DNA of 8,761 bases. It comes from a virus. Its lineage: Duplodnaviria > Heunggongvirae > Uroviricota > Caudoviricetes. Positions within the stretch are counted from its first letter, which is position 1. Every line of letters starts with the position of its first letter. The stretch lies in IMG/VR virus record IMGVR_UViG_2645727563_000007; one strand, given 5' to 3'. Made by a program: the position numbers and the translations under genes. The notes below the pieces were generated by a model. That model saw only the letters and a program-made list of their open reading frames with translations, was not told the DNA's origin and ran no database searches. This document shows positions 1 to 8,761 of this stretch, piece after piece.

Positions 1-81
1 ATGTCAAGCTGTTTTTTAATAGATAGCACAAAATGCTAAAGATGCCCCTATACCATCTCGTACAGGGGGTTTTGGAGGGGT

Positions 82-270
82 TTAGCGGGGGTCGGTATGG
101 TTATCTGTTCTGGTCCTGTCCTTGAGGTCAAACGACCATTCACGACCAAACAATCTGAACACGATAAACACTCTGACGATGAAATAGCGAAGTAGTAGGC
201 CTGCAATAAGTCCAATACCTCCACCAGCCCAAACATCAGGTGACCCCAGTTCAGGAGGGAGATTTACCAT
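82..270 (-). CDS. small predicted single-pass membrane protein (62 aa from internal ATG; the ORF extends to 306)
   Basis: ORF on - strand. The internal ATG (plus 268-270) is preceded by AGGA (revcomp of plus 277-280) at 6-nt spacing; the upstream ATG at 306 has no Shine-Dalgarno. Product MVNLPPELGSPDVWAGGGIGLIAGLLLRYFIVRVFIVFRLFGREW... has one hydrophobic helix then a charged tail. No family recognised. Confidence 0.3.
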   Translation of the reverse strand: MVNLPPELGSPDVWAGGGIGLIAGLLLRYFIVRVFIVFRLFGREWSFDLKDRTRTDNHTDPR

Positions 271-433
271 TAAATTTCCTGTGTGCAATGCAATACCATG
301 TGACATACATAGTTGATTCGGTTAGTTGGGCTTGTACCAACCCCTATCGAATAAACCTCATAGCCACGCCTCATATTTTACTCTCCCCATAGAACCATTA
401 TACCACAGATGTTAATAAAATGTTAAAAAATGC

Positions 434-462
434 TTGACATTAGTCTTTGAAAATGCTAGTAT
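434..462 (+). promoter_or_regulatory. sigma70-type promoter: -35 TTGACA (434-439), 17-bp spacer, extended -10 TGcTAGTAT (454-462)
   Basis: Perfect -35 hexamer, optimal 17-bp spacer, TG-extended -10 with conserved A2 and T6, AT-rich upstream tract; about 50 bp upstream of the first ATG of the 512-1823 operon. Confidence 0.45.
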
Positions 463-511
463 TGTCTATATGGTTAACAGAGAATTAACAATTATAAGGA
501 CTGGCTTATGA

Positions 512-1069
512 ATGAACGACAGAGAATTTAGAGCGATGCTTCAGGCATCAAAAGAACGCAACAAGCACAACTCCTACGCTTACACAAACAATCCCACCAG
601 CTACGAATTACCCAAGTTCACCAAGAAAGAACGCAAAGGCATTGACGAAGTAATTCGGGCAATTACACCGAGGAGTCGTTATATGTCAACCAGAAAGAGC
701 ACCCAGAACACTATTAAAAATTATTTGGCTAACTTTGACAGTTACGAGCAGTTACCAAGCAAGCTTGATGATATTTTTATTGGGTTCTGTAGAAGTGAAG
801 GTCACCCGAAATACAACAAAAAACTATTTTATCTTCTAAAGAATCTTGATGAAATTAACTCAGCTACCGTGACAAATTATCTTCAGCGACAAGCAACCAG
901 ACTTAGCTACGAATTACCAAGCGATAAATATTGTGCATTGCTTGCTGTAATGTGTGCAAAGCTAATTGGTATTGTTGAACATCATATTGCCGTTGGGAAT
1001 ATTGAGCCAATGGAAAACGAGCAACCAGATTTCGAGTTTGACCCGTATTTAGTTACAGAGGAATTTTAA
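512..1069 (+). CDS. hypothetical protein, 185 aa (first gene of a coupled four-gene operon)
   Basis: ORF track; AAGGA (496-500) upstream of ATG 512; stop codon directly abuts the next start (TAA 1067-1069, ATG 1070). No domain recognised by eye. Confidence 0.6.
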   Translation: MNDREFRAMLQASKERNKHNSYAYTNNPTSYELPKFTKKERKGIDEVIRAITPRSRYMSTRKSTQNTIKNYLANFDSYEQLPSKLDDIFIGFCRSEGHPKYNKKLFYLLKNLDEINSATVTNYLQRQATRLSYELPSDKYCALLAVMCAKLIGIVEHHIAVGNIEPMENEQPDFEFDPYLVTEEF

Positions 1070-1348
1070 ATGAAGAAACACACTTTGACCCGTATTTCAG
1101 AGGAAGCTTTTAACGAGCTTGCCAGAATTAAACGAGCTACTAACCTGCCTCATCAGACTGTTATGCAGCTTGCAATTGCTAAAGAGGTCACTGAGTCGGA
1201 TTTACTTAAATATCCAGTCTCTAAAGGTCGTAAGCACATCCGAATTACTCAGGACGCTTTAGATACTTTGAAGGCACTTAACGGCTTTAAGATTGATATT
1301 GCCCGTCTATTGAGTCTTAAGATTCACAAGTTAGCGATGGAGGTCTGA
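1070..1348 (+). CDS. ribbon-helix-helix (CopG/Arc-like) DNA-binding protein, apparently two tandem RHH units, 92 aa
   Basis: SD AGAGGA (1057-1062) 7 nt upstream. N-terminus MKKHTLTRISEEAFNELARIKRATNLPHQTVMQLAIAKEV has the beta-strand / helix / helix pattern of CopG-type RHH proteins; a second similar unit RKHIRITQDALDTLKALNGFKIDIARLLSLKI follows. Confidence 0.5.
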   Translation: MKKHTLTRISEEAFNELARIKRATNLPHQTVMQLAIAKEVTESDLLKYPVSKGRKHIRITQDALDTLKALNGFKIDIARLLSLKIHKLAMEV

Positions 1349-1350
1349 TT

Positions 1351-1623
1351 ATGAAGCAATGGCGAGATGATATTAAACGGTTCTTTGCAACTTACTTCAT
1401 GATTAATTACGAAACAGGAATGCTTGAATGGATTGATGGCGGAGAGGTTAAGACAAGAGATGATGCTTACGGTAATCCAATGATTCGTTATGGCACTCGT
1501 GATTATTATGTGAAGTATGTCATCTGGTTTTTGCATCATGAAGTTCAGGCAACTAAAAAGATTATCTTCAGGGATGGTAATAAAAGAAATTGCCACCCAA
1601 ACAATTTACTACAGGAGATTTAA
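1351..1623 (+). CDS. HNH_3-like (homing-endonuclease-type) small protein, 90 aa; canonical catalytic His apparently substituted
   Basis: SD GGAGG (1339-1343); start 2 bp after the previous stop. C-terminal ...YVKYVIWFLHHEVQATKKIIFRDGNKRNCHPNNL resembles the HNH_3 pattern (hR.vW ... vDHiDGN..NN...NL), but the DH preceding DGN reads FR. Confidence 0.4.
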   Translation: MKQWRDDIKRFFATYFMINYETGMLEWIDGGEVKTRDDAYGNPMIRYGTRDYYVKYVIWFLHHEVQATKKIIFRDGNKRNCHPNNLLQEI

Positions 1624-1823
1624 TGTTATGTATTAAATTCGAATATTTGACAGATAAAATGATTAAGCATGTATCAGACCTGCTCATCAAAGAAGATGGT
1701 TTCGGTGATGTTTGCAATCCAAAAGATATCTTCATTCACGCCACCAGCCCAAACGAAACATTAAAAACAGCAGTTACAGCGGAATGGTTTGAACGAAATA
1801 AGACAGAATTAGGTTATTGGTAG
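1623..1823 (+). CDS. hypothetical protein, 66 aa (start reassigned to ATG 1623)
   Basis: ATG at 1623 overlaps the previous stop (TAATG); SD AGGAG (1613-1617) at 5-nt spacing. The track's longer ORF from 1590 uses a TTG start inside the upstream gene with no SD. Confidence 0.45.
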   Translation: MLCIKFEYLTDKMIKHVSDLLIKEDGFGDVCNPKDIFIHATSPNETLKTAVTAEWFERNKTELGYW

Positions 1824-2002
1824 TCCGAGACTTTAAGAGAAATTAGAAAAAAAGCTTCTCAGGCGCTCTCAATCGCATTCTAACGCAAAAAACTATCTTA
1901 TTTTAGGGTGGGTAATACCACTGTACAGGCTACCCCTGAAAAAGACTGTTTAGCTCGTTACAGAGCGATTGAGGAGGTCTGGTAAAAAGGAGATTTTAAG
2001 AA

Positions 2003-2326
2003 ATGAACAATTTCCCGCTACAGATTTTCGTTGATAGCGACACCGCTATGATGGTGCAAAGCTTCATTGATGCAGGTATTAGCATTGACTTTGACAGGCT
2101 GTTAAAGCTAATGGCTGAGAACTCAGAAACAATCGAAGATTTTATTCAGGAAATTGAAACTGGTGAACCACGTTTTATGTTTCCTGTTACCGACTCAAGC
2201 ATGAAAAGGCTTGTTATCGAAGAAACTAACAAATACAGCGTTAGCCCTGAAAAATATCTCAAGGCGGCTATAGCAATTTTGTACAGCGATAATATTCTGG
2301 TGACGGATTCGAAGGTGGTGCATTAA
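2003..2326 (+). CDS. hypothetical acidic protein, 107 aa
   Basis: ORF with AAGGAG (1987-1992) upstream of ATG 2003. By hand count about 18 Asp+Glu against about 9 Lys+Arg. No family recognised. Confidence 0.55.
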   Translation: MNNFPLQIFVDSDTAMMVQSFIDAGISIDFDRLLKLMAENSETIEDFIQEIETGEPRFMFPVTDSSMKRLVIEETNKYSVSPEKYLKAAIAILYSDNILVTDSKVVH

Positions 2327-2403
2327 TGGGTTTAATAATTGCTTGGACGCTGTTAGGGTTATTTGTTGGTTGCTGGATGGGTAACACAGTAAATAGAAAT
2401 TGA
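2326..2403 (+). CDS. small hydrophobic peptide, 25 aa (MGLIIAWTLLGLFVGCWMGNTVNRN), candidate
   Basis: ATG overlaps the stop of the 107-aa gene (TAATG at 2324-2328), suggesting translational coupling. One predicted transmembrane helix. Below the ORF-track length cutoff, so supported only by coupling and hydrophobicity. Confidence 0.3.
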   Translation: MGLIIAWTLLGLFVGCWMGNTVNRN

Positions 2404-2427
2404 TGTTACCAATCTGTTAAAAAGCTG

Positions 2428-2456
2428 TTGACAAATAACCTTGAGCATGACATAAT
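2428..2456 (+). promoter_or_regulatory. sigma70-type promoter: -35 TTGACA (2428-2433), 17-bp spacer, -10 CATAAT (2451-2456)
   Basis: Perfect -35, 17-bp spacer, 5/6 -10, preceded by an A-rich UP-like tract (TTAAAAAG). No long ORF follows for about 430 bp. Confidence 0.5.
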
Positions 2457-2658
2457 TGTATATATGAGGATAGTCTTCTATCCGAAGTCTATAGGGAGAG
2501 CAATTCTCCTTGAATTAAAATATTAATCGTCTCTACATCGATGATAACTATATTCTGAGTTGGAAAGGTGCAATGCTTTTCGTCATGGCCTTTCAGTTTA
2601 GTCTGAGAGGCTATCTCAAAAAGTGCTTAATCATTCATTATTGAACCCTTACAGCTTT

Positions 2659-2688
2659 GCCCTAACTCATGATTAGGGCGTTTTCTTT
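2659..2688 (+). terminator. intrinsic terminator: stem GCCCTAA / TTAGGGC, 7-nt loop, then GTTTTCTTT
   Basis: Perfect 7-bp stem (2659-2665 / 2673-2679) followed by a U-rich tract (2681-2688). Confidence 0.5.
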
Positions 2689-2757
2689 AAGAGTTTTTAA
2701 ACAGAGCTTTTAAAGAAAGTTTTTCCTGAAACTTCGTTAACGTTAAAGCAAACCTTC

Positions 2758-2794
2758 AAAGCCCTTTACAGATTCAATGTTTAGGGCTTTTCTT
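2758..2794 (+). terminator. second terminator-like hairpin: AAAGCCCT / AGGGCTTT, 17-nt loop, then TTTCTT
   Basis: 8-bp stem (2758-2765 / 2783-2790) with U-rich 3' side. The long loop lowers confidence. The 3' half (TTAGGGCTTTTCTTAATAGAG) is a diverged copy of the 2673-2697 terminator region. Confidence 0.3.
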
Positions 2795-2890
2795 AATAGA
2801 GCATCTTTAATAAATCGTTAAGTCATCTTCTAAGTGTATTGGCGTTGAAGGTGCTCTATTAAGAAATAACCACACTTAGAGGAAATTATA

Positions 2891-3601
2891 ATGGCCAACG
2901 ATATTTACATTAACGGTAAAAAGATTGATAGCTTCGGTGACTGGTCACCAACGACTGAACATCCAGCTATCACTATTCAGCGTCAAGAGCATGACAAGCG
3001 TATTAAGCTTGAGCAAGAAATCCGAATGTCACCAAAGGTAATTTCCTTTGTGACTCCTGAACCTCAAGAGATGCCCGATATCTGCAAGGGTGAATCACTA
3101 CTTGAGCTTGAAAAGAAATATTACCCACTGCTGAAAGCACAGCGTATTAAACTTGATGACGCTTACAGCAAAGTTACCTTGATGCAATCAGCTATTGAGC
3201 CGTCAGAATTTGAGATTCAGGATGAATTGTCACAGAAACCATTTGTCTATTACCAATACGAAGACAATGATGGTTTTGGTATTTATCCAGAAAGCATCCC
3301 AGCCGTGATTAGTAGTCTTCCTGATGGATATCGAATTGTGAAGATGGTTAAAGCTTCAAGGGGTGCTGGTCAGTTTGTTTACATGACCGATAAAAGCGAT
3401 GAAGAAGTCTGTGAAATTGCCAGACAGAACATCTTGGCATCACGTAACAAGCAGCTTGATAGTGCTAAGTTGTGTCTTTCAAGAGAGCTTCAGGCTATGA
3501 AAGAGCTTGTGAAAGAATATGAAGATGCTAAGAAGGTTGCTATGCAGGCTGATATTGAGCAGCTTACGAAGATTTCTCAGAAGTATAGCAAGGTACTTTA
3601 A
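2891..3601 (+). CDS. hypothetical protein, 236 aa, predicted coiled-coil C-terminal region
   Basis: ORF with SD AGAGGA (2878-2883) 7 nt upstream of ATG 2891. No family recognised. Confidence 0.6.
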   Translation: MANDIYINGKKIDSFGDWSPTTEHPAITIQRQEHDKRIKLEQEIRMSPKVISFVTPEPQEMPDICKGESLLELEKKYYPLLKAQRIKLDDAYSKVTLMQSAIEPSEFEIQDELSQKPFVYYQYEDNDGFGIYPESIPAVISSLPDGYRIVKMVKASRGAGQFVYMTDKSDEEVCEIARQNILASRNKQLDSAKLCLSRELQAMKELVKEYEDAKKVAMQADIEQLTKISQKYSKVL

Positions 3602-3625
3602 CTAATAATTAAAAGGAGGTGATGA

Positions 3626-3829
3626 ATGATTGATTTAACAGAACGCTATGAACTTATTAAAGCAATTAGCGAGAGATTGAAAGAACAACCCAACAAACCA
3701 AAACGAATCAAATCATCCACCTCTAGGCAAAATAGCAGAATCAGAAGAATCGCTAAATGGTGTCTTGATAAATTACCAAGTGATTGTCAGATTGTCGGTG
3801 AAGATGGTAATTATTATCTGGTTAGGTAA
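3626..3829 (+). CDS. hypothetical small basic protein, 67 aa
   Basis: Strong SD AAGGAGG (3613-3619) 6 nt upstream of ATG 3626. Lys/Arg-rich centre (KPKRIKSSTSRQNSRIRRIAKW) suggests nucleic-acid binding. No family recognised. Confidence 0.5.
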   Translation: MIDLTERYELIKAISERLKEQPNKPKRIKSSTSRQNSRIRRIAKWCLDKLPSDCQIVGEDGNYYLVR

Positions 3830-3855
3830 CAAGAATTGGTTGGGTAAAAATCAAC

Positions 3856-3896
3856 GGGAGAGATTATCGAGTGACATCGGTAGCTCTCCCTTTTTT
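3856..3896 (+). terminator. intrinsic terminator: GGGAGAG...CTCTCCC stem with inner TATCGA/TCGGTA pairing, then TTTTTTGT
   Basis: 7-bp GC-rich outer stem (3856-3862 / 3884-3890), an inner 6-bp helix (3865-3870 / 3877-3882, one G.U), and a T6 tract (3891-3896) directly after the 67-aa gene. Confidence 0.55.
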
Positions 3897-3926
3897 GTAT
3901 ATGAACACTTAAGAGGTGAAACATGA

Positions 3927-6059
3927 ATGAGCAAATTCACAGTTGATAGTTTTATCGTTGAGCTAGGCTTCAGCGAGAACGTTATTAAGGGCTTGCAAAG
4001 AGTTGAAAAGGCAGCTTTGCAGTCAGCACAAAGAATTGAAAAGAACCTAAATAAAGGTTTCAGGATTAATACAAAGCAGCTTGATAGTAATTTAACGGCT
4101 TCTTTAAAGTCAATGGAAGGGAAGATTAATAAGACCTTTGACCGTCTGGAAGCTAGAGCACGAAGCACAAAAGTTTTCCAGTTTACCACCAGATTTAATG
4201 ACACTGTTAATCCTCCAAAACAACCGAGACAGCCACGAATTAGCGGCAACAGAGCAATCACAGCAGCTTATTCAGCTAATATGACCAAGCTGAAAGGTCT
4301 TAACCCAATTGTCGAGAAATACATCAAATCTCAGTTTTACGGGCTATCTGCTAAAGCTGGGTCAATGGATAATTCAAAATTCAATGAGAAGTTGGCTCAA
4401 TTAAATGCTTCGGTCAGAGAAGCAATTGCTAAAGCCAGAGGCCATACATCCACCAGCATTAACGGTGACAGAGCAGCTAGCAGTCTTGATAATCTGTCTT
4501 TAGCGGCGGTTAAAACAGCAGGTGCATTTATCAGCTTTCAGGCTGTACTATCCGCTTATCAGCGAGTAATGGAAGTTGGCCTTCAACGTGCATCATCGGA
4601 AAGAAGTATTGATTTCGTATTCGGTGACCAAAGTACACAGGTCAAAAAGTTCATTCAAGATTTAACTCAGATTACTGGGATGGACACAACCGAAACACAA
4701 GCACAGTTTGCTTCATTTGGTGCATCTGCAAAGAACACGATGGGTCTTGAAGGGTCAGAAGAGTTATTTAAAAACCTTACAGGTTATGCTCGTTTAATGG
4801 GTCGTTCAGATGAGCAGATTCAAAGAGCATTAACCGCAGTGTCGCAGATGGCTTCTAAGGGTCAGGTGATGTCTGAGGAGCTGAAGGGGCAACTATCTGA
4901 AGCTTTACCGGGTGCTACTCAGGCATTTGCAAAGGCTTTAGGTCTGACTGAAAAACAGCTTTTCGATAAGATGAAAAATGGTGATGTTAAAGCCTCTGAT
5001 GCACTCCCTAAATTTGCTAAAGAACTTGGTTCACAGATTAATTCAAGAGGTGGCTGGAAAGCTATTCAGGACTCTACGCAGACAATGCTAGGGAACTTGA
5101 AGAATACTTGGAACAACTCACTAACGGATATTTTCAAAGGTTCTGAAGATGGTTTGCAGGACTTCACAAGAAGCTTGACCAATCTTTTAAACGCTCTTGG
5201 TGGAACTGGTAAAACATTAGGTGAAAGTTTTGGTAGCTTGATGACTGATATGTCACATGGTGTCGATTCATTGACTGATATTTCTTACAAGGTGAGAGCT
5301 TTCTTTGATGAGGTGACATTAGCTTACCGTTCACTAAATGACACTCAGAAAAAAATTGTTGACGGTTTATCTGATGGGTTAATTGATGGTTTGAAGATGC
5401 TTGCTGTAGCTGTTACTGCTCAAAAGGCTGCAAATGTAGCTGGAGGCTTGTTAAACCTTGCAAATGCTGTTACTTCATTCGGTGATGCTGTTAATAAAGC
5501 TAAAGCTGGCAAGGCTGGTTCTTCAGGTGGTGCGCTAAGTAAAGTCGGTAGAGTTGTCCTTTATGCTGAGTTGGTGAACTTTGCTCTTGATAATTTAAAC
5601 CCTGAAGCTGCTAAGAATCCGAACTTACATCAATCAGGTATTGGCACAGAAACAAACTTCAACCCTGAATACAAAGGCGATTCATCTAAACCAAACCAAA
5701 TTAATGAGGGATGGGCTAAGATTGGTAGTTCTATCGCTGACTGGTTTAATGGTGCAGCTAATAAAATTGCTAACTTCCAAGAGCCAATGAGTAACCTTGT
5801 TAATAACACACAATCAACTCCACCAGCTATCACAGGTGACATGGTTAATAGCAATGCTCAACTTGCAATGACTATTAGTGAACTATCACGCAAGGTAGAC
5901 GCTTTAACAGTAGAAGCTAAGAAGCCCTTGTCAGTTAATATCACTGGTGAAGCAACTGTTAGACCGGATGAACCAGCTTTCTTTAATTTCAGTCAATCGG
6001 CTAATGACCAGTTCACGCAGGATATGCTCTTAAGTTCAAGCTATCCAGAGGAAGAATGA
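3927..6059 (+). CDS. phage tail tape-measure-domain protein, 710 aa
   Basis: SD AAGAGGTG (3911-3918). Central segment ...QMASKGQVMSEELKGQLSEALPGATQAFAKALGLTEKQLFDKMKNGDVKASDALPKFAKELG... matches the conserved tape-measure motif. Predicted helical N-terminal part and Gly/Ala/Ser/Asn-rich C-terminal part are typical of these proteins. Confidence 0.8.
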   Translation: MSKFTVDSFIVELGFSENVIKGLQRVEKAALQSAQRIEKNLNKGFRINTKQLDSNLTASLKSMEGKINKTFDRLEARARSTKVFQFTTRFNDTVNPPKQPRQPRISGNRAITAAYSANMTKLKGLNPIVEKYIKSQFYGLSAKAGSMDNSKFNEKLAQLNASVREAIAKARGHTSTSINGDRAASSLDNLSLAAVKTAGAFISFQAVLSAYQRVMEVGLQRASSERSIDFVFGDQSTQVKKFIQDLTQITGMDTTETQAQFASFGASAKNTMGLEGSEELFKNLTGYARLMGRSDEQIQRALTAVSQMASKGQVMSEELKGQLSEALPGATQAFAKALGLTEKQLFDKMKNGDVKASDALPKFAKELGSQINSRGGWKAIQDSTQTMLGNLKNTWNNSLTDIFKGSEDGLQDFTRSLTNLLNALGGTGKTLGESFGSLMTDMSHGVDSLTDISYKVRAFFDEVTLAYRSLNDTQKKIVDGLSDGLIDGLKMLAVAVTAQKAANVAGGLLNLANAVTSFGDAVNKAKAGKAGSSGGALSKVGRVVLYAELVNFALDNLNPEAAKNPNLHQSGIGTETNFNPEYKGDSSKPNQINEGWAKIGSSIADWFNGAANKIANFQEPMSNLVNNTQSTPPAITGDMVNSNAQLAMTISELSRKVDALTVEAKKPLSVNITGEATVRPDEPAFFNFSQSANDQFTQDMLLSSSYPEEE

Positions 6060-6072
6060 TTTCTTATATATC

Positions 6073-6137
6073 CGTGTGCTACGTGAAATCTTCTGAACAG
6101 ATATACCCACCAAAAATTATTTTTTACGTAGCTCACG
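6073..6137. repeat. imperfect inverted repeat: 16-nt arms (6073-6088 / 6122-6137) around a 33-nt spacer
   Basis: CGTGTGCTACGTGAAA and TTTTACGTAGCTCACG pair at 15 of 16 positions (one U.U mismatch, one G.U); located just downstream of the tape-measure stop codon. Confidence 0.5.
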
Positions 6138-6158
6138 CTTAACAGAGAAAATACATAT

Positions 6159-6208
6159 ATTTCAAAGGCTTGGTTAAAAATGATTAAAATACACTAAGCC
6201 TTTGAAAT
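6159..6208. repeat. perfect 13-bp inverted repeat ATTTCAAAGGCTT / AAGCCTTTGAAAT (extendable to 16 bp), ending 2 nt before the next gene's SD
   Basis: Arms at 6159-6171 and 6196-6208 are exact reverse complements; three further pairs (one G.U) extend the helix; SD AAGGAG at 6211-6216. Confidence 0.55.
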
Positions 6209-6222
6209 CAAAGGAGAATTTA

Positions 6223-6996
6223 ATGATTTACTCTAATCAGATTCGTTACAGTGGCAAAGATGGCATCTATTTCCACTTAAGAGATAATGTAGATGCCTTC
6301 TTAACCTTATCAGCAACTGAAAATATGGAATTTGACAGCCCTATGCAGGTAACTACACAGAACATGCAATCAGGGCAAACCGTTACAGATAATGTGCAAA
6401 GAGCACCCAGAACAATCACTATTAGTGGTGTCGTTGTAGTTGGCTATGAAGGAAGCTTATTATTAACTCGTCAGGGTCAATTAGTAGAAAACTTCATTGA
6501 CACTCTCGAAAGCTGGCGTGACCAGAAGCAAATTATTTCGGTTATCTGTAAGGACGGAATTAAAATTGATGATTCCATTATTACGAGTTTTAAAGCCTCT
6601 AAAGATGTTGGAATTTCAAATGGTCTAAGAATCCAGCTAACTTTTCAGGAAATTAACTTCAAAGCCATTGTAGGGCAAACTGATGTTTCAGCAGCTACTG
6701 GCAAAACTGCTACCACGAATGACGGTGGTGCTACCAGTAAGAAGAATGCGGGTAACGTGACTACTGAACGCAATAACGCACCTATGCTGATGTGTCAGGA
6801 ACTGTACAGTTACTCAGCATCTGAGCTATCTGATGAAGCGCTAAGGGTCCGTAGCAATTGCTCTAAAAATGTCACGGTGAAAGATGGTGTAAGCACCTTC
6901 ACAGCCTCAGCTAATGAGCAGGCTTCAAAAGTGCTTAAGTCGGGTAATGCTTTACGGAAGTTTTCTGTGAATCCGAATAAGAAGGGCACTTATTGA
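6223..6996 (+). CDS. hypothetical protein, 257 aa; by position possibly a distal tail (Dit-like) protein
   Basis: Start set at ATG 6223 with SD AAGGAG (6211-6216) rather than the track's TTG 6202. Immediately follows the tape-measure gene, the usual position of Dit in siphovirus tail modules; sequence looks beta-rich. Function is inferred from position only. Confidence 0.55.
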
Positions 6997-7000
6997 GACA

Positions 7001-7023
7001 TAAAAAGGGGCTTCATAGCCCCT
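7001..7023 (-). terminator. intrinsic terminator for the recombinase gene (stem AGGGGCT / AGCCCCT, 4-nt loop, U5 on the - strand)
   Basis: On the - strand the RNA reads AGGGGCUAUGAAGCCCCUUUUUAUG immediately after the recombinase stop codon (plus 7029-7031). On the + strand the U-tract is poor, so it is mainly unidirectional. Confidence 0.6.
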
Positions 7024-7028
7024 GAAAA

Positions 7029-8549
7029 TTACAGTTGATAAGCGTCAATATCCAGTAGCTCTTTATCAGCAATTTCAAAGATTGGTGACCCATCATTTAG
7101 CGGTAACGGGTTTGTAGGTATGGTGATTTCAGTGTCGTTCTGTAGCGTTACAGTTACCGAATCCTTACCCAATGTAAGCCCTTTTAGATGCTTGGACAAA
7201 ATCAACTGACACTCGACACGACCCACTTTAGTTGTCAGGTCAATATCTTTAAGCTGGGGTAGTTCCTTATCAGTGAGTGAAGCCTTACGCCTCATGTTAT
7301 CAATCGTGGTCTGTAGCTCTGTGCGCTTCTGGTTCAGTTCCTTAAGCTGAATTTTTAGTTCATCAATATCATCCATCTCAAGAAGTAGGGCGGTAGCTTT
7401 CTTGATTCTGGTTGTGACAATTTCAACCTCATGCTGTAGAGATGCAATCTCCCCCTCTGCTTCTCCATCATTCCCCACGTCAATCATTCCTAGAAAATTT
7501 TCAAGCATCCACTTATCAAACGGTTTACGCTTCAACGGAGGAACATCACAGCGACCATCAAGATGGTTATTGCACCGATAAACGCCCTGATACTTATTCT
7601 TAGTCCCTGTAGGGTGAACACTAGCCCCGCACTGACACCTAAACAGACCTTTGAAGATGTTAATCGTTAATGGATTATCACTTGCAGGTGTACGGCCTAT
7701 ACGGTTCTTACCAAGAATCTCTTGAGCTTTATTGAACGTTGAAGCATCTATAGCGGCTTCGTAGTAGTTCGGTATAGCGGGGCGGTCATTACGTTGTGAT
7801 GCTGGTAACGTGCCTATCGTTGTCTCTGACCTTAAGATGGTGCGTACAGAGTGAACACTAAACCCGTTAGCATCTTTACGGCGACTAAACGACTTTATAC
7901 CGTTGCTTTGAAGGTGACGGGCGATGTTATGCAGACTTTCACCACTTAGCAGCAGCTTGAAAATCAGTCTTACAGTCTCAGCGTGTTCATTGCACTTGAA
8001 AGTATCGGGGTCAATCCATCCGGGAACATTTCTTGTAAGACGCTGTTCACCAGCAAGGGCAAGCTTTGCACGTTGTTCCCATTTCTGACTAACACGGAAA
8101 GACTTCTGTTTACTCTCCTGATGCGCTATGTAGCTTTTAACCCGCTGAATGATTGAGATTCCTAAATCATCGGATAGAGCATCCCTTGTGTAGATTAGCC
8201 CATCCTGTAGAGTGTGAATCTCGATACCATGAGCAATAATGCGATTCATCAAGGCTTCTGTTTCAAGATGTTCAAGGCGGCCTATGCGGTCGATAGCTTC
8301 GACTAACAGAACTGTACCTTCTGAAAACTCCCCACTTTCAATACGGGAAAGCATATCCCCAAATTGCCCTGACAAGTGCTTACCTTTGTAACCGGATAGA
8401 CCCTCATCATTGAAAGATGCTACTACTTGAGCATCGCTATTCTTCTTCAACCATTGTTTGAACAGGTCGTTTTGTCGTCTGGTTGAATCTGCACCTTCAG
8501 CGCCTTGTATGGCTGAACTGTACCGAAGGTATGTAATTACGTGTCTCAT
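7029..8549 (-). CDS. large serine recombinase (serine integrase), 506 aa
   Basis: N-terminal resolvase-type catalytic domain (YLRYSSAIQ with the catalytic Ser; DEGLSGYKG; LLVEAIDRIGR), followed by a recombinase domain, a Cys-rich zinc-ribbon (FRCQCGASVHPTG...YRCNNHLDGRCD) and a C-terminal coiled-coil. SD GGGAG (revcomp of 8559-8563) 9 nt upstream of ATG. Confidence 0.9.
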   Translation of the reverse strand: MRHVITYLRYSSAIQGAEGADSTRRQNDLFKQWLKKNSDAQVVASFNDEGLSGYKGKHLSGQFGDMLSRIESGEFSEGTVLLVEAIDRIGRLEHLETEALMNRIIAHGIEIHTLQDGLIYTRDALSDDLGISIIQRVKSYIAHQESKQKSFRVSQKWEQRAKLALAGEQRLTRNVPGWIDPDTFKCNEHAETVRLIFKLLLSGESLHNIARHLQSNGIKSFSRRKDANGFSVHSVRTILRSETTIGTLPASQRNDRPAIPNYYEAAIDASTFNKAQEILGKNRIGRTPASDNPLTINIFKGLFRCQCGASVHPTGTKNKYQGVYRCNNHLDGRCDVPPLKRKPFDKWMLENFLGMIDVGNDGEAEGEIASLQHEVEIVTTRIKKATALLLEMDDIDELKIQLKELNQKRTELQTTIDNMRRKASLTDKELPQLKDIDLTTKVGRVECQLILSKHLKGLTLGKDSVTVTLQNDTEITIPTNPLPLNDGSPIFEIADKELLDIDAYQL

Positions 8550-8639
8550 GGTGATAAACTCCCATGCAATTGATTCTCATTTAAAGATGAACTTATAAAC
8601 GTTATGGCTAATGCTACAATGCCGAATAGCTACAATACA

Positions 8640-8761
8640 ATGACCCTTGATTTACCTCGCCGCTTCCCCTGGCCGACGTTACTTTCGGTCTGCATTCATG
8701 GTGCTGTTGTGGCGGGTCTGCTCTATACCTCGGTACATCAGGTTATTGAACTACCTGCGCC
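8640..8761 (+). CDS. tonB: TonB (energy transducer), N-terminal 40 codons; partial, continues beyond the window
   Basis: Translation MTLDLPRRFPWPTLLSVCIHGAVVAGLLYTSVHQVIELPA is recognised as the N-terminal signal-anchor region of Escherichia-type TonB; GC content is visibly higher than the upstream intergenic DNA. Confidence 0.9.
   Translation, partial: MTLDLPRRFPWPTLLSVCIHGAVVAGLLYTSVHQVIELPA

Follow-up and report, generated by a model that had tools for sequence, protein, structure and literature searches.

Conserved hairpins beside ribosome-binding sites are familiar from the translational operators of phages MS2/R17 (coat protein) and T4 (RegA, gp32 and gp43), and from the attenuators and riboregulators that sequester an SD. 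Processing hairpins are represented by the T7 R0.3–R1.3 sites and the lambda N leader. Among antitermination sites, nut has a boxA followed by boxB, whose 5-bp stem carries a GNRA-like pentaloop, and put has a pair of stem-loops that come soon after a promoter and ahead of terminators. PeSLs of T4-like phages are short, repeated intergenic stem-loop cassettes carrying expression signals (Arbiol et al. 2010, PMC2839356; Comeau et al. 2014, PMC4122927). They contain consensus sigma-70 promoters and short G/C-rich terminator stems, and occur in tens of copies in phage hyperplastic regions (PMC2839356, PMC4122927). Hairpin leader cassettes controlling a downstream gene are a familiar idea and, taken alone, the two inverted repeats described here (IR1 and IR2) are a well-conserved example, ordinary in kind. 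They work like SD-sequestering leaders and PeSL-type cassettes, and differ from these in their long A/U-rich loops, their weak or absent promoters and their chromosomal-island host.

The window, the whole stretch of 8,761 nucleotides analyzed here, is a small E. coli chromosomal island. Its integration site adjoins tonB (positions 8630–8761 are the start of tonB, and the same neighbor is found in relatives), and relatives of the island occupy other chromosomal sites (yecD/DUF72, wrbA) with gene order unchanged. The genes and terminators around the repeats are:

3856–3896, plus strand: intrinsic terminator upstream of the TMP gene (GGGAGAG...CTCTCCC, then T6)
3927–6059, plus strand: tape-measure (TMP) gene; Pfam TMP_3, 7e-18; PHROG 4036, 7e-84; C-terminal end identical to that of phage garuso
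6223–6996, plus strand: Dit-like gene, 'phage baseplate protein' in RefSeq; Pfam Dit_like, 2.5e-20
7006–7023: island terminator at the end of the operon, the only one that follows IR1 and IR2
7029–8549, minus strand: large serine recombinase with Resolvase, Recombinase and Zn_ribbon_recom domains

The island also contains an HNH-like ORF and several orphan ORFs with no PHROG or PADLOC match, and its proteins include Orf92 (1070–1348) and Orf67 (3626–3829); a search of the window for tRNA and tmRNA genes returned none. The two genes flanking the repeats are as described in an earlier note on this DNA, with TMP_3 at 3927–6059 and Dit_like at 6223–6996. The start of TMP and Dit positions 6250–6756 are 93–98% identical at the nucleotide level to Felixounavirus phages of E. 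coli and Salmonella (megablast), the Dit segment itself being 95–98% identical. As judged from these alignments, the two island tail genes are mosaic in their identity to Felixounavirus phages.

The spacer between the two genes is where the island departs from phage gene order. The stop codon of TMP runs into the start codon of Dit in phage garuso (GAATAATG, TAATG overlap), where the final TMP codons also contain the SD of Dit. The end of TMP (...SSYPEEE*) is common to the island and Felixounavirus, and the island then adds a 163-nt spacer (6060–6222) with a new SD. Because the phage TMP stop overlaps the Dit start, the spacer is an island-specific insertion, and since the TMP end is retained ahead of it, the repeats sit exactly at the break of translational coupling. 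No match to the spacer was found among 50,697 phage records, and a short-word BLAST of the island intergenic regions against the complete garuso genome returned chance matches only, of at most 18 nt (at most 13 nt for the spacer). A 28-codon ORF at 6056–6142, ATGA-coupled to the TMP stop, keeps neither its start nor its frame in relatives. Folded as RNA, the spacer reaches −45 kcal/mol (z −5.2), a value attained by 0/200 shuffles. The earlier note had described the paired arms; the insertion of the spacer relative to the phage order, the portability of IR1 as a repeated cassette and the satellite-like character of the island had escaped it.

IR1, the upstream repeat, is made up as follows:

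6073–6088, plus strand: IR1 5' arm, CGTGTGCTACGTGAAA, with the invariant core TACGTGA at 6080–6086
6122–6137, plus strand: IR1 3' arm, TTTTACGTAGCTCACG, with the invariant core T(T/C)ACGTA at 6124–6130
6118–6123, plus strand: TAnnnT hexamer, always 2 nt ahead of ACGTA; it reads TATTTT here, and other variants have TAGAAT or TAGATT
6079–6142, plus strand: 64-nt IR1 cassette, CTACGTGA-N39-ACGTA-N3-CACGCTTAA, with 33 invariant columns

The imperfect 16-bp repeat claimed at 6073–6088 and 6122–6137 is borne out: its arms are complementary at 14/16 positions, one of the two exceptions being a G.U on the plus strand, and a repeat finder extends it to 29 nt at 72%. IR1 alone folds at −18.7 kcal/mol, with z −4.76 for the sense strand against −2.36 for the antisense, and 0/200 shuffles reach the sense value. 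For both IR1 and IR2 the sense strand folds better than the antisense because sense G.U pairs turn into antisense mismatches.

The IR1 unit was defined by comparing 24 island loci and then 12 more (n = 36), and the cassette lies upstream of Dit in 36/36 of the island copies examined. A second copy is present in 10/21 relatives, between a strong intrinsic terminator and the TMP SD; the window is without this second copy, and its positions 3897–3919 read GTATATGAACACTTAAGAGGTGA. In the copies examined, whether before Dit or before TMP, IR1 abuts the SD. The spacing is 39 nt in all but two copies, one of which has 40 nt and the other an insertion of 24 nt. When 23 distinct variants are aligned, 33 columns are invariant, both core arms and TAnnnT among them; in the remainder of the loop about five types are combined as a mosaic. 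Of the species representatives in GTDB, only E. albertii has the IR1 pattern, and further single IR1 or IR2 arms in the window occur at chance level.

The seven core pairs of IR1 are kept in the minimum-energy fold of 23/23 variants (−10 to −24 kcal/mol), with a core of only 8–11 bp. Covariation in IR1 was not above shuffles among the 23 variants, whose copies are close kin and recombining, giving low power. The core never varies and therefore says nothing about pairing; outer pairs are often broken without compensation, as in a GCT-to-CAA replacement. An invariant stem without covariation suits a putative protein-recognized operator, on RNA or on DNA. In this IR1 resembles the MS2/R17 coat-protein hairpin and the T4 RegA, gp32 and gp43 operators, likewise hairpins of conserved sequence beside a ribosome-binding site, and its presence on two mRNA regions, which would then be co-regulated, also recalls phage translational operators. 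However, the known phage operators are small, have short loops and usually overlap the SD or AUG, whereas IR1 has a loop exceeding 30 nt and stops 6–7 nt short of the SD. Complementarity of the IR1 loop to the SD was not significant in any of the 23 variants (p 0.2–0.9).

IR1 segment types recombine, with changes at the 5' edge, inside and after the cassette, and all four combinations of left and right loop occur. Read from this pattern, IR1 is a hotspot of homologous-recombination mosaicism, and the question arises whether the repeats are recombination linkers with no regulatory role, serving as homology patches for the shuffling of TMP and Dit alleles between islands and phages or being homogenized by gene conversion. 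The reassortment of TMP and Dit allele types among islands, the changes of segment type just listed and the very fast diversification of the orf236 family (3114 clusters at 90% identity) all accord with such linkers. However, mosaicism extends into Dit itself, so recombination does not need the cassettes; the phage DNA that recombines with Dit is without them; and hairpin geometry, position against the SD and complementarity to the SD would be left unexplained. Linkers of this kind are considered very unlikely.

IR2 lies between IR1 and the Dit start codon and comprises, with its surroundings:

6159–6174, plus strand: IR2 5' arm, proposed anti-sequestor, holding TCAAAGG, a heptamer common to the SD region
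6175–6192, plus strand: IR2 loop, TAAAAATGATTAAAATAC, nearly invariant, with a −10-like TAAAAT at 6185–6190
6193–6208, plus strand: IR2 3' arm, with the anti-SD CCTTTG at 6199–6204, whose partners are the 5' arm or CAAAGG at 6209–6214
6211–6216, plus strand: SD AAGGAG of the Dit-like gene, with ATG at 6223–6225; the RefSeq start in relatives is the same ATG
6138–6225, plus strand: 88-nt leader (IR2, SD and start codon), with a mean pairwise identity between islands of 95.8%

The 13-bp perfect core (6159–6171 / 6196–6208) can indeed be extended to 16 bp (6159–6174 / 6193–6208; 15/16, 94%, one G.T), and the statement that the repeat ends 2 nt before the SD holds, with the arm ending at 6208 and AAGGAG at 6211–6216. 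IR2 alone folds at −19.3 kcal/mol (z −7.13 sense against −5.02 antisense), and 0/200 shuffles reach the sense value. Between islands the 88-nt leader has a mean identity of 95.8%; the corresponding means are 83.9% over the opening 450 nt of Dit and 70.9% when only third codon positions are counted. The leader is present in 367/5426 complete E. coli genomes, in 302 of these at 95% identity or more; in E. coli E24377A (NC_009801.1) it occupies 1,409,336–1,409,423. IR2 occurs only where the island Dit begins MIY(S/T)NQ; in MFDTKQ-type islands IR1 is followed directly by the SD. A metagenome scan with the 18-mer of the IR2 loop recovered at least five island copies, the other matches among those listed being unrelated and AT-rich.

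Among 21 variants of IR2, variable columns number 9/16 in the 5' arm, 5/18 in the loop, 2/16 in the 3' arm and 2/17 in the SD region. Such unequal constraint on the two arms is expected if the 3' arm has a second partner. Stem cells pair in 92% of cases and most arm substitutions retain sense-strand pairing; the pair G31–C62, for example, changes from G–C to G.U in five sequences and to A–U in one. Unpaired changes in the 5' arm are seen in three variants (L155, L156 and L157). TAAAAT is invariant in the 21 variants while its immediate flanks vary, and the loop is conserved like the stem. A mini-ORF in the loop, MIKIH, is not conserved and is lost in one variant (L018). Covariation counts are not above shuffles, 163/500 of which reach the observed count, in sequences that are only about 4% divergent; the covariation sample of about 40 copies, close kin and recombining, gives little power. 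The earlier note had proposed conservation and covariation of the arms as a check, and had taken unconserved arms as a point against its proposals: the arms are conserved in homologous loci (36 copies for IR1, 21 variants for IR2), and neither repeat covaries above shuffles.

The heptamer TCAAAGG is found in both the IR2 5' arm and the SD region, and its complement lies in the 3' arm. The computed probability that the AAGG bases of the SD are unpaired is 0.52–0.99 when the 5' arm is part of the transcript, and 0.01–0.13 in RNAs starting at or after 6175. The SD is closed in the short RNAs because CCUUUG (6199–6204) pairs with CAAAGG (6209–6214). The hairpin between the 3' arm and the SD has an energy of −6.5 kcal/mol (p ~0.02 vs shuffles) and is paired in 21/21 variants. 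As a generic anti-SD, CCUUU pairs almost equally strongly with the window's other SDs (−3.6 to −6.2 kcal/mol). IR2 thus has the three-segment logic of SD-sequestering leaders, namely an anti-anti-SD (5' arm), an anti-SD (3' arm) and the SD, in states that are computed; an anti-SD with a competing upstream partner is present in IR2 and absent from IR1. In contrast to the known leaders, the mini-ORF of the IR2 loop is not a conserved one and there is no Rfam match. The suggestion in the earlier note that the repeats are translational control elements fits IR2, with its computed SD switch and its very conserved 3' arm and SD; the note's options of RNA processing or stability and of protein binding may hold as well, above all for IR1.

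We tentatively favor the reading that the spacer consists of mRNA leader cassettes, IR1 being a hairpin of operator or insulator type and IR2 a translational switch. Two island-specific cassettes would act on the TMP–Dit mRNA, replacing the direct translational coupling of the phage. IR1, the portable 64-nt cassette, would set its hairpin immediately 5' of the region where ribosomes bind on the phage-derived tail genes of the island. This hairpin combines an invariant stem of 7–8 bp (UACGUGA / U(U/C)ACGUA) with a long loop whose length is fixed, and it may be recognized by sequence, or may just shield and isolate the downstream ribosome-binding site. In a long transcript the IR2 anti-SD CCUUUG would pair with the 5' arm, leaving the Dit SD free. 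In an RNA lacking the 5' arm, or one in which that arm is occupied or cut away, CCUUUG would instead pair with CAAAGG at the SD and close it. On this reading TMP and the spacer would share a transcript, the hairpins would form in the cell, and a factor, if there is one, would flip the switch. Several features weigh against mRNA leader cassettes. The IR1 loop, of 33–39 nt, keeps its length and has invariant positions, which is out of the ordinary for a simple hairpin in RNA and would be in keeping with an element acting at the DNA level. In IR2 the loop, with its −10-like TAAAAT, is conserved to the same degree as the stem. Covariation of IR1 and IR2 is not above shuffles, the IR1 loop is without an anti-SD, and CCUUU is generic.

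A DNA-level element is what the main rival to the mRNA-leader reading supposes: cassettes of the PeSL kind, in which each inverted repeat brackets a weak or activator-dependent promoter and gives TMP and Dit their own, possibly infection-triggered, transcription. The arms would then be operator half-sites or an attenuating stem, and TAnnnT would be, under promoter cassettes only, a candidate −10 element. The likeness to PeSLs is evident in placement. IR1 and IR2 are directly upstream of genes, variably present and located at mosaic or recombination junctions; a PeSL stem can sit between or over promoter hexamers, and an intergenic stem-loop adjacent to or overlapping a promoter, upstream of an ORF, is found here as well. 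Repeated copies at insertion, deletion or replacement junctions are matched by the second IR1 in 10/21 relatives, mosaic breakpoints inside IR1 resemble PeSL-mediated shuffling, and the strong terminator followed by a cassette upstream of TMP reproduces the terminator-then-promoter order of PeSLs (PMC2839356, PMC4122927). IR2 includes a sigma-70-like match of 9/12 (TTCAAA-18-TAAAAT), its TAAAAT being the invariant one; in IR1 the TAnnnT hexamer keeps an invariant register just before the 3' arm, with constant 39-nt spacing and conservation without covariation. If transcription began at about 6197, it would be understandable that conservation is strongest in the block made up of the 3' arm and the SD. 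Garuso, of the phage family that exchanges DNA with the island, also embeds promoters in inverted repeats in its early intergenic regions, as in TTTACA-GGGGCTTA..TAAAGT-AAGCCCC; the design is alike, with arms bracketing a −10-like sequence directly upstream of the SD, but there is no sequence similarity, and the garuso cassettes have clear TTTACA/TTGACA −35 boxes and GC-rich arms.

The promoter matches themselves are less persuasive. A 9/12 sigma-70 match such as that of IR2 is at chance level, with three found against 2.6 expected in 700 nt, and the −35 in most relatives is ATCAAA, matching at only 3/6 positions. A relaxed sigma-70 scan of IR1 yields at most 8/12 (9/12 in one variant), only in the TGAACA loop variants and in none of variants B and C; a sigma-70 promoter in IR1 was rejected, as it is not conserved among variants. 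The strong sigma-70 consensus of PeSLs is thus lacking in both repeats, as are their short GC-rich stems: IR1 and IR2 have A/U-rich stems and 18–39 nt loops, occur in one or two copies per element and reside in a chromosomal island. Half of the islands have no IR1 before TMP, the terminator abutting the SD, so IR1 cannot be an obligatory TMP promoter. The unequal conservation of the two IR2 arms is unexpected for a symmetric operator. On balance promoter cassettes are possible, if somewhat unlikely, and mRNA leader cassettes are retained as the tentative preference.

A further alternative at the RNA level is that both repeats are RNase III-type processing or stability hairpins only, their stems being cut or left intact so that the TMP and Dit segments differ in half-life; neither a switch nor a dedicated binding protein would be involved. 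Two stable sense-strand hairpins with stems of 15–16 bp stand between two cistrons without a U-tract, as do the RNase III sites of the T7 early region, likewise intercistronic hairpins without U-tracts in polycistronic phage-type mRNA. However, the T7 sites consist of two stacked helices around an internal loop, about 20 bp in total, unlike IR1 and IR2, and in many variants the stems are shorter than the approximately two helical turns that RNase III prefers (IR1 core 8–11 bp). Processing alone would also leave the invariant stem sequence, the fixed loop length, the conserved IR2 loop and the heptamer matching the SD unexplained, and it is judged quite unlikely.

The absence of a U-tract also separates the repeats from intrinsic terminators, which are stable hairpins after a gene as well. 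The conclusion of the earlier note that neither is a standard terminator stands: no T-run follows either repeat (tails CTTAACAGAG and CAAAGGAG; loops of 33 and 18 nt), a terminator scan of 5800–6500 was empty, and in place of the G+C-rich stem, short loop and immediate U-tract of an intrinsic terminator, both have A/U-rich stems and long loops. At 3856–3896 and 7006–7023 the island has genuine terminators, of quite another appearance.

A role of the spacer as a cis site for DNA transactions (pac/cos, a replication origin, a relict att or a target of the HNH nuclease) is highly improbable. The AT-rich loop center with an A-tract is compatible with such a site, as is the presence in the island of a serine recombinase and an HNH-like ORF, and CTTAACAGAG resembles the CTTAACAR boxes repeated in a 1.65-kb non-coding phage region. 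Yet the relict recombination or packaging site entertained in the earlier note finds no counterpart, nothing similar being present in the 50,697 phage records or in the complete Felixounavirus genome, where garuso gives only 13-nt chance hits; a packaging or origin site common with a helper phage was rejected for the same reason. The link to the CTTAACAR region is weak, the 10-mer CTTAACAGAG occurring twice in garuso against about one expected and TTAACA being mildly enriched in the window (15 against 8.3 ± 2.7). Duplication directly before two SDs, and optional at one of them, is unlike the arrangement of pac, ori or att sites.

Further identities were examined and rejected. TACGTGA and TYACGTA boxes in garuso are scattered through coding DNA and are not regulatory. 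Against Rfam 15 families, at a permissive threshold, the only match was one at chance level elsewhere in the window (E = 4.7). A dispersed E. coli repeat (REP/BIME, ERIC or MITE), expected in many copies at unrelated places on the chromosome and, for MITEs, with target-site duplications, is contradicted by the fetched matches, which adjoin a TMP or baseplate gene, and by the comparison of filled with empty sites, which shows no duplication. Lambda-type nut (boxB) and HK022 put sites do not fit loops of 18 and 33 nt, nor the position of the elements downstream of an internal terminator with only the end-of-operon terminator following. In a crude test for a P4-like RNA–RNA interaction between the non-coding transcript at 2460–2690 and the spacer, the duplex was no better than shuffles.

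A further hairpin bears on whether control by RNA would be out of place in this island. Directly upstream of orf236 lies a third large inverted repeat:

2789–2810 and 2845–2866: arms of the orf236 repeat, enclosing a 34-nt loop

The repeat exists in relatives in two forms with arms unrelated in sequence, and in both forms the loop contains 11–12 nt complementary to the orf236 SD region. The complementary segments in the window are CTTCTAAGTGT (2827–2837) and ACACTTAGAGG (2872–2882). The loop–SD duplexes lie at −17 to −19 kcal/mol (p ≤ 0.004), and those of shuffled sequence at −7 to −9 ± 2.5 kcal/mol. As the complementarity is found in both forms, the island uses RNA anti-SD devices, and this two-form hairpin suggests post-transcriptional wiring of the island as a whole.

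The spacer is widespread. A 201-nt spacer query gave 608 matches in 467/5426 complete E. coli genomes; of 40 evenly sampled among the 608, all 40 were labeled TMP, baseplate protein or unannotated, and every match that was fetched adjoins the island TMP or baseplate gene. The frequency of the island is about 7–9% of complete E. coli genomes. Within the literature searched, no Felixounavirus-associated satellite or island of such a type is described, and the island is apparently an undescribed satellite-like element of E. coli. The island family may be a more notable object than the repeats themselves.

The repeats mark exactly where the island has uncoupled two tail genes shared with virulent Felixounavirus phages and placed them under its own control instead. 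It is tempting to speculate that IR1 and IR2 are the control points of an undescribed satellite-like or defense island of Felixounavirus, in which a dedicated island or phage factor would read IR1 on both stolen tail genes and, with the IR2 switch, confine the chimeric TMP and Dit to infected cells, hijacking or poisoning tail assembly; this extended scenario is unlikely as it stands. Should the IR2 switch and the IR1 operator prove real, they would provide an experimental handle on when and how the island expresses phage-like tail proteins, one that bears on whether the island is a satellite, a defense element, or both.

The island occupies about 8 kb of the E. coli sequence (approximately positions 400-8600 of window 1-8761) and encodes a large serine recombinase, an HNH-like ORF, orphan ORFs, a tape-measure protein (TMP) and a Dit-like baseplate protein (Dit). 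At its left end, two strong promoters diverge:

426-397, minus strand, strong promoter (11/12)
434-462, plus strand, strong promoter (10/12)
410-426 and 474-490, TTAACA box pairs in inverted orientation, 11 nt apart, flanking the promoters
82-306, minus strand, small hydrophobic ORF of 74 aa

Judged by sequence, the TTAACA boxes around the promoters (397-498) look like an operator arrangement. The 74-aa ORF, for which no family match was found, is transcribed by the 426-397 promoter in a direction leading away from the island.

Two further units with predicted RNA structure lie upstream of orf236 (2891-3601):

2428-2456, sigma-70 promoter, near-consensus TTGACA-17-CATAAT with TG
2469-2484, small hairpin module GGATAGTCTTCTATCC, downstream of this promoter
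2658-2688, terminator, downstream of the hairpin module
2789-2810 and 2845-2866, arms of a third large inverted repeat
2827-2837, anti-Shine-Dalgarno (anti-SD) sequence in the loop of this repeat, complementary to the SD region at 2872-2882

The 2428-2688 unit contains no ORF of at least 40 aa and may specify a non-coding RNA or leader of approximately 220 nt; relatives carry its hairpin module again near TMP, where it either precedes or follows the terminator upstream of that gene. Relatives also carry a second form of the orf236 repeat, in which the arms are unrelated and the complementarity between loop and SD is retained (p ≤ 0.004). The orf236 family comprises 3114 clusters at 90% identity, and its micro-diversity is extreme. 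The best 120 all belong to E. coli, Shigella or E. albertii. NCBI labels many of them "transposase"; despite these labels, Pfam and PHROG searches with orf236 gave no match.

The region from orf236 to the spacer between TMP and Dit (6060-6222) includes two small reading frames:

3626-3829, Orf67, the last gene before the terminator upstream of TMP
6056-6142, 28-codon ORF, its start overlapping the TMP stop as ATGA and its frame running across the IR1 hairpin to the conserved GCTTAA

Orf67 contains an arginine-rich stretch, SRQNSRIRRIAKW, which we take to be reminiscent of RNA-binding motifs in N-type antiterminators. The 28-codon ORF is probably not a gene, because neither its start nor its frame is kept in relatives. 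In one relative (L009), the copy of IR1, the 64-nt hairpin cassette, that precedes TMP carries a 24-nt insertion, TGATTCGGATAAGAATTATCCTCA, directly after the 5' arm. This insertion is a small hairpin in its own right, and the cassette evidently tolerates or attracts extra hairpin modules.

Repeated cassettes also make up the early intergenic regions (43.3-48.7 kb) of the Felixounavirus phage garuso (MN850566.1). Some consist of an inverted repeat with an embedded promoter (TTTACA-GGGGCTTA...TAAAGT-AAGCCCC), and others of a promoter followed by the 5' hairpin GGGGAGGGAATGACCTTCCCC; they resemble the promoter-early stem-loop cassettes (PeSLs) of T4-like phages. A 1.65-kb non-coding region of the same phage (48953-50602), with convergent gene blocks on either side, is dense in CTTAACAR / CTAACAAG / TGTTAAG repeats and may be a phage origin or regulatory region.

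The island TMP and Dit genes are mosaics with 93-98% identity to virulent Felixounavirus phages. The spacer between them is present in 467 of 5426 complete genomes, and islands bearing it are integrated at several sites, namely tonB, yecD/DUF72 and wrbA (relatives L002-L004 and L022-L026). No description of an island of this type was found in the literature searched. The element may be a satellite, or else a defence island that interferes with tail assembly.
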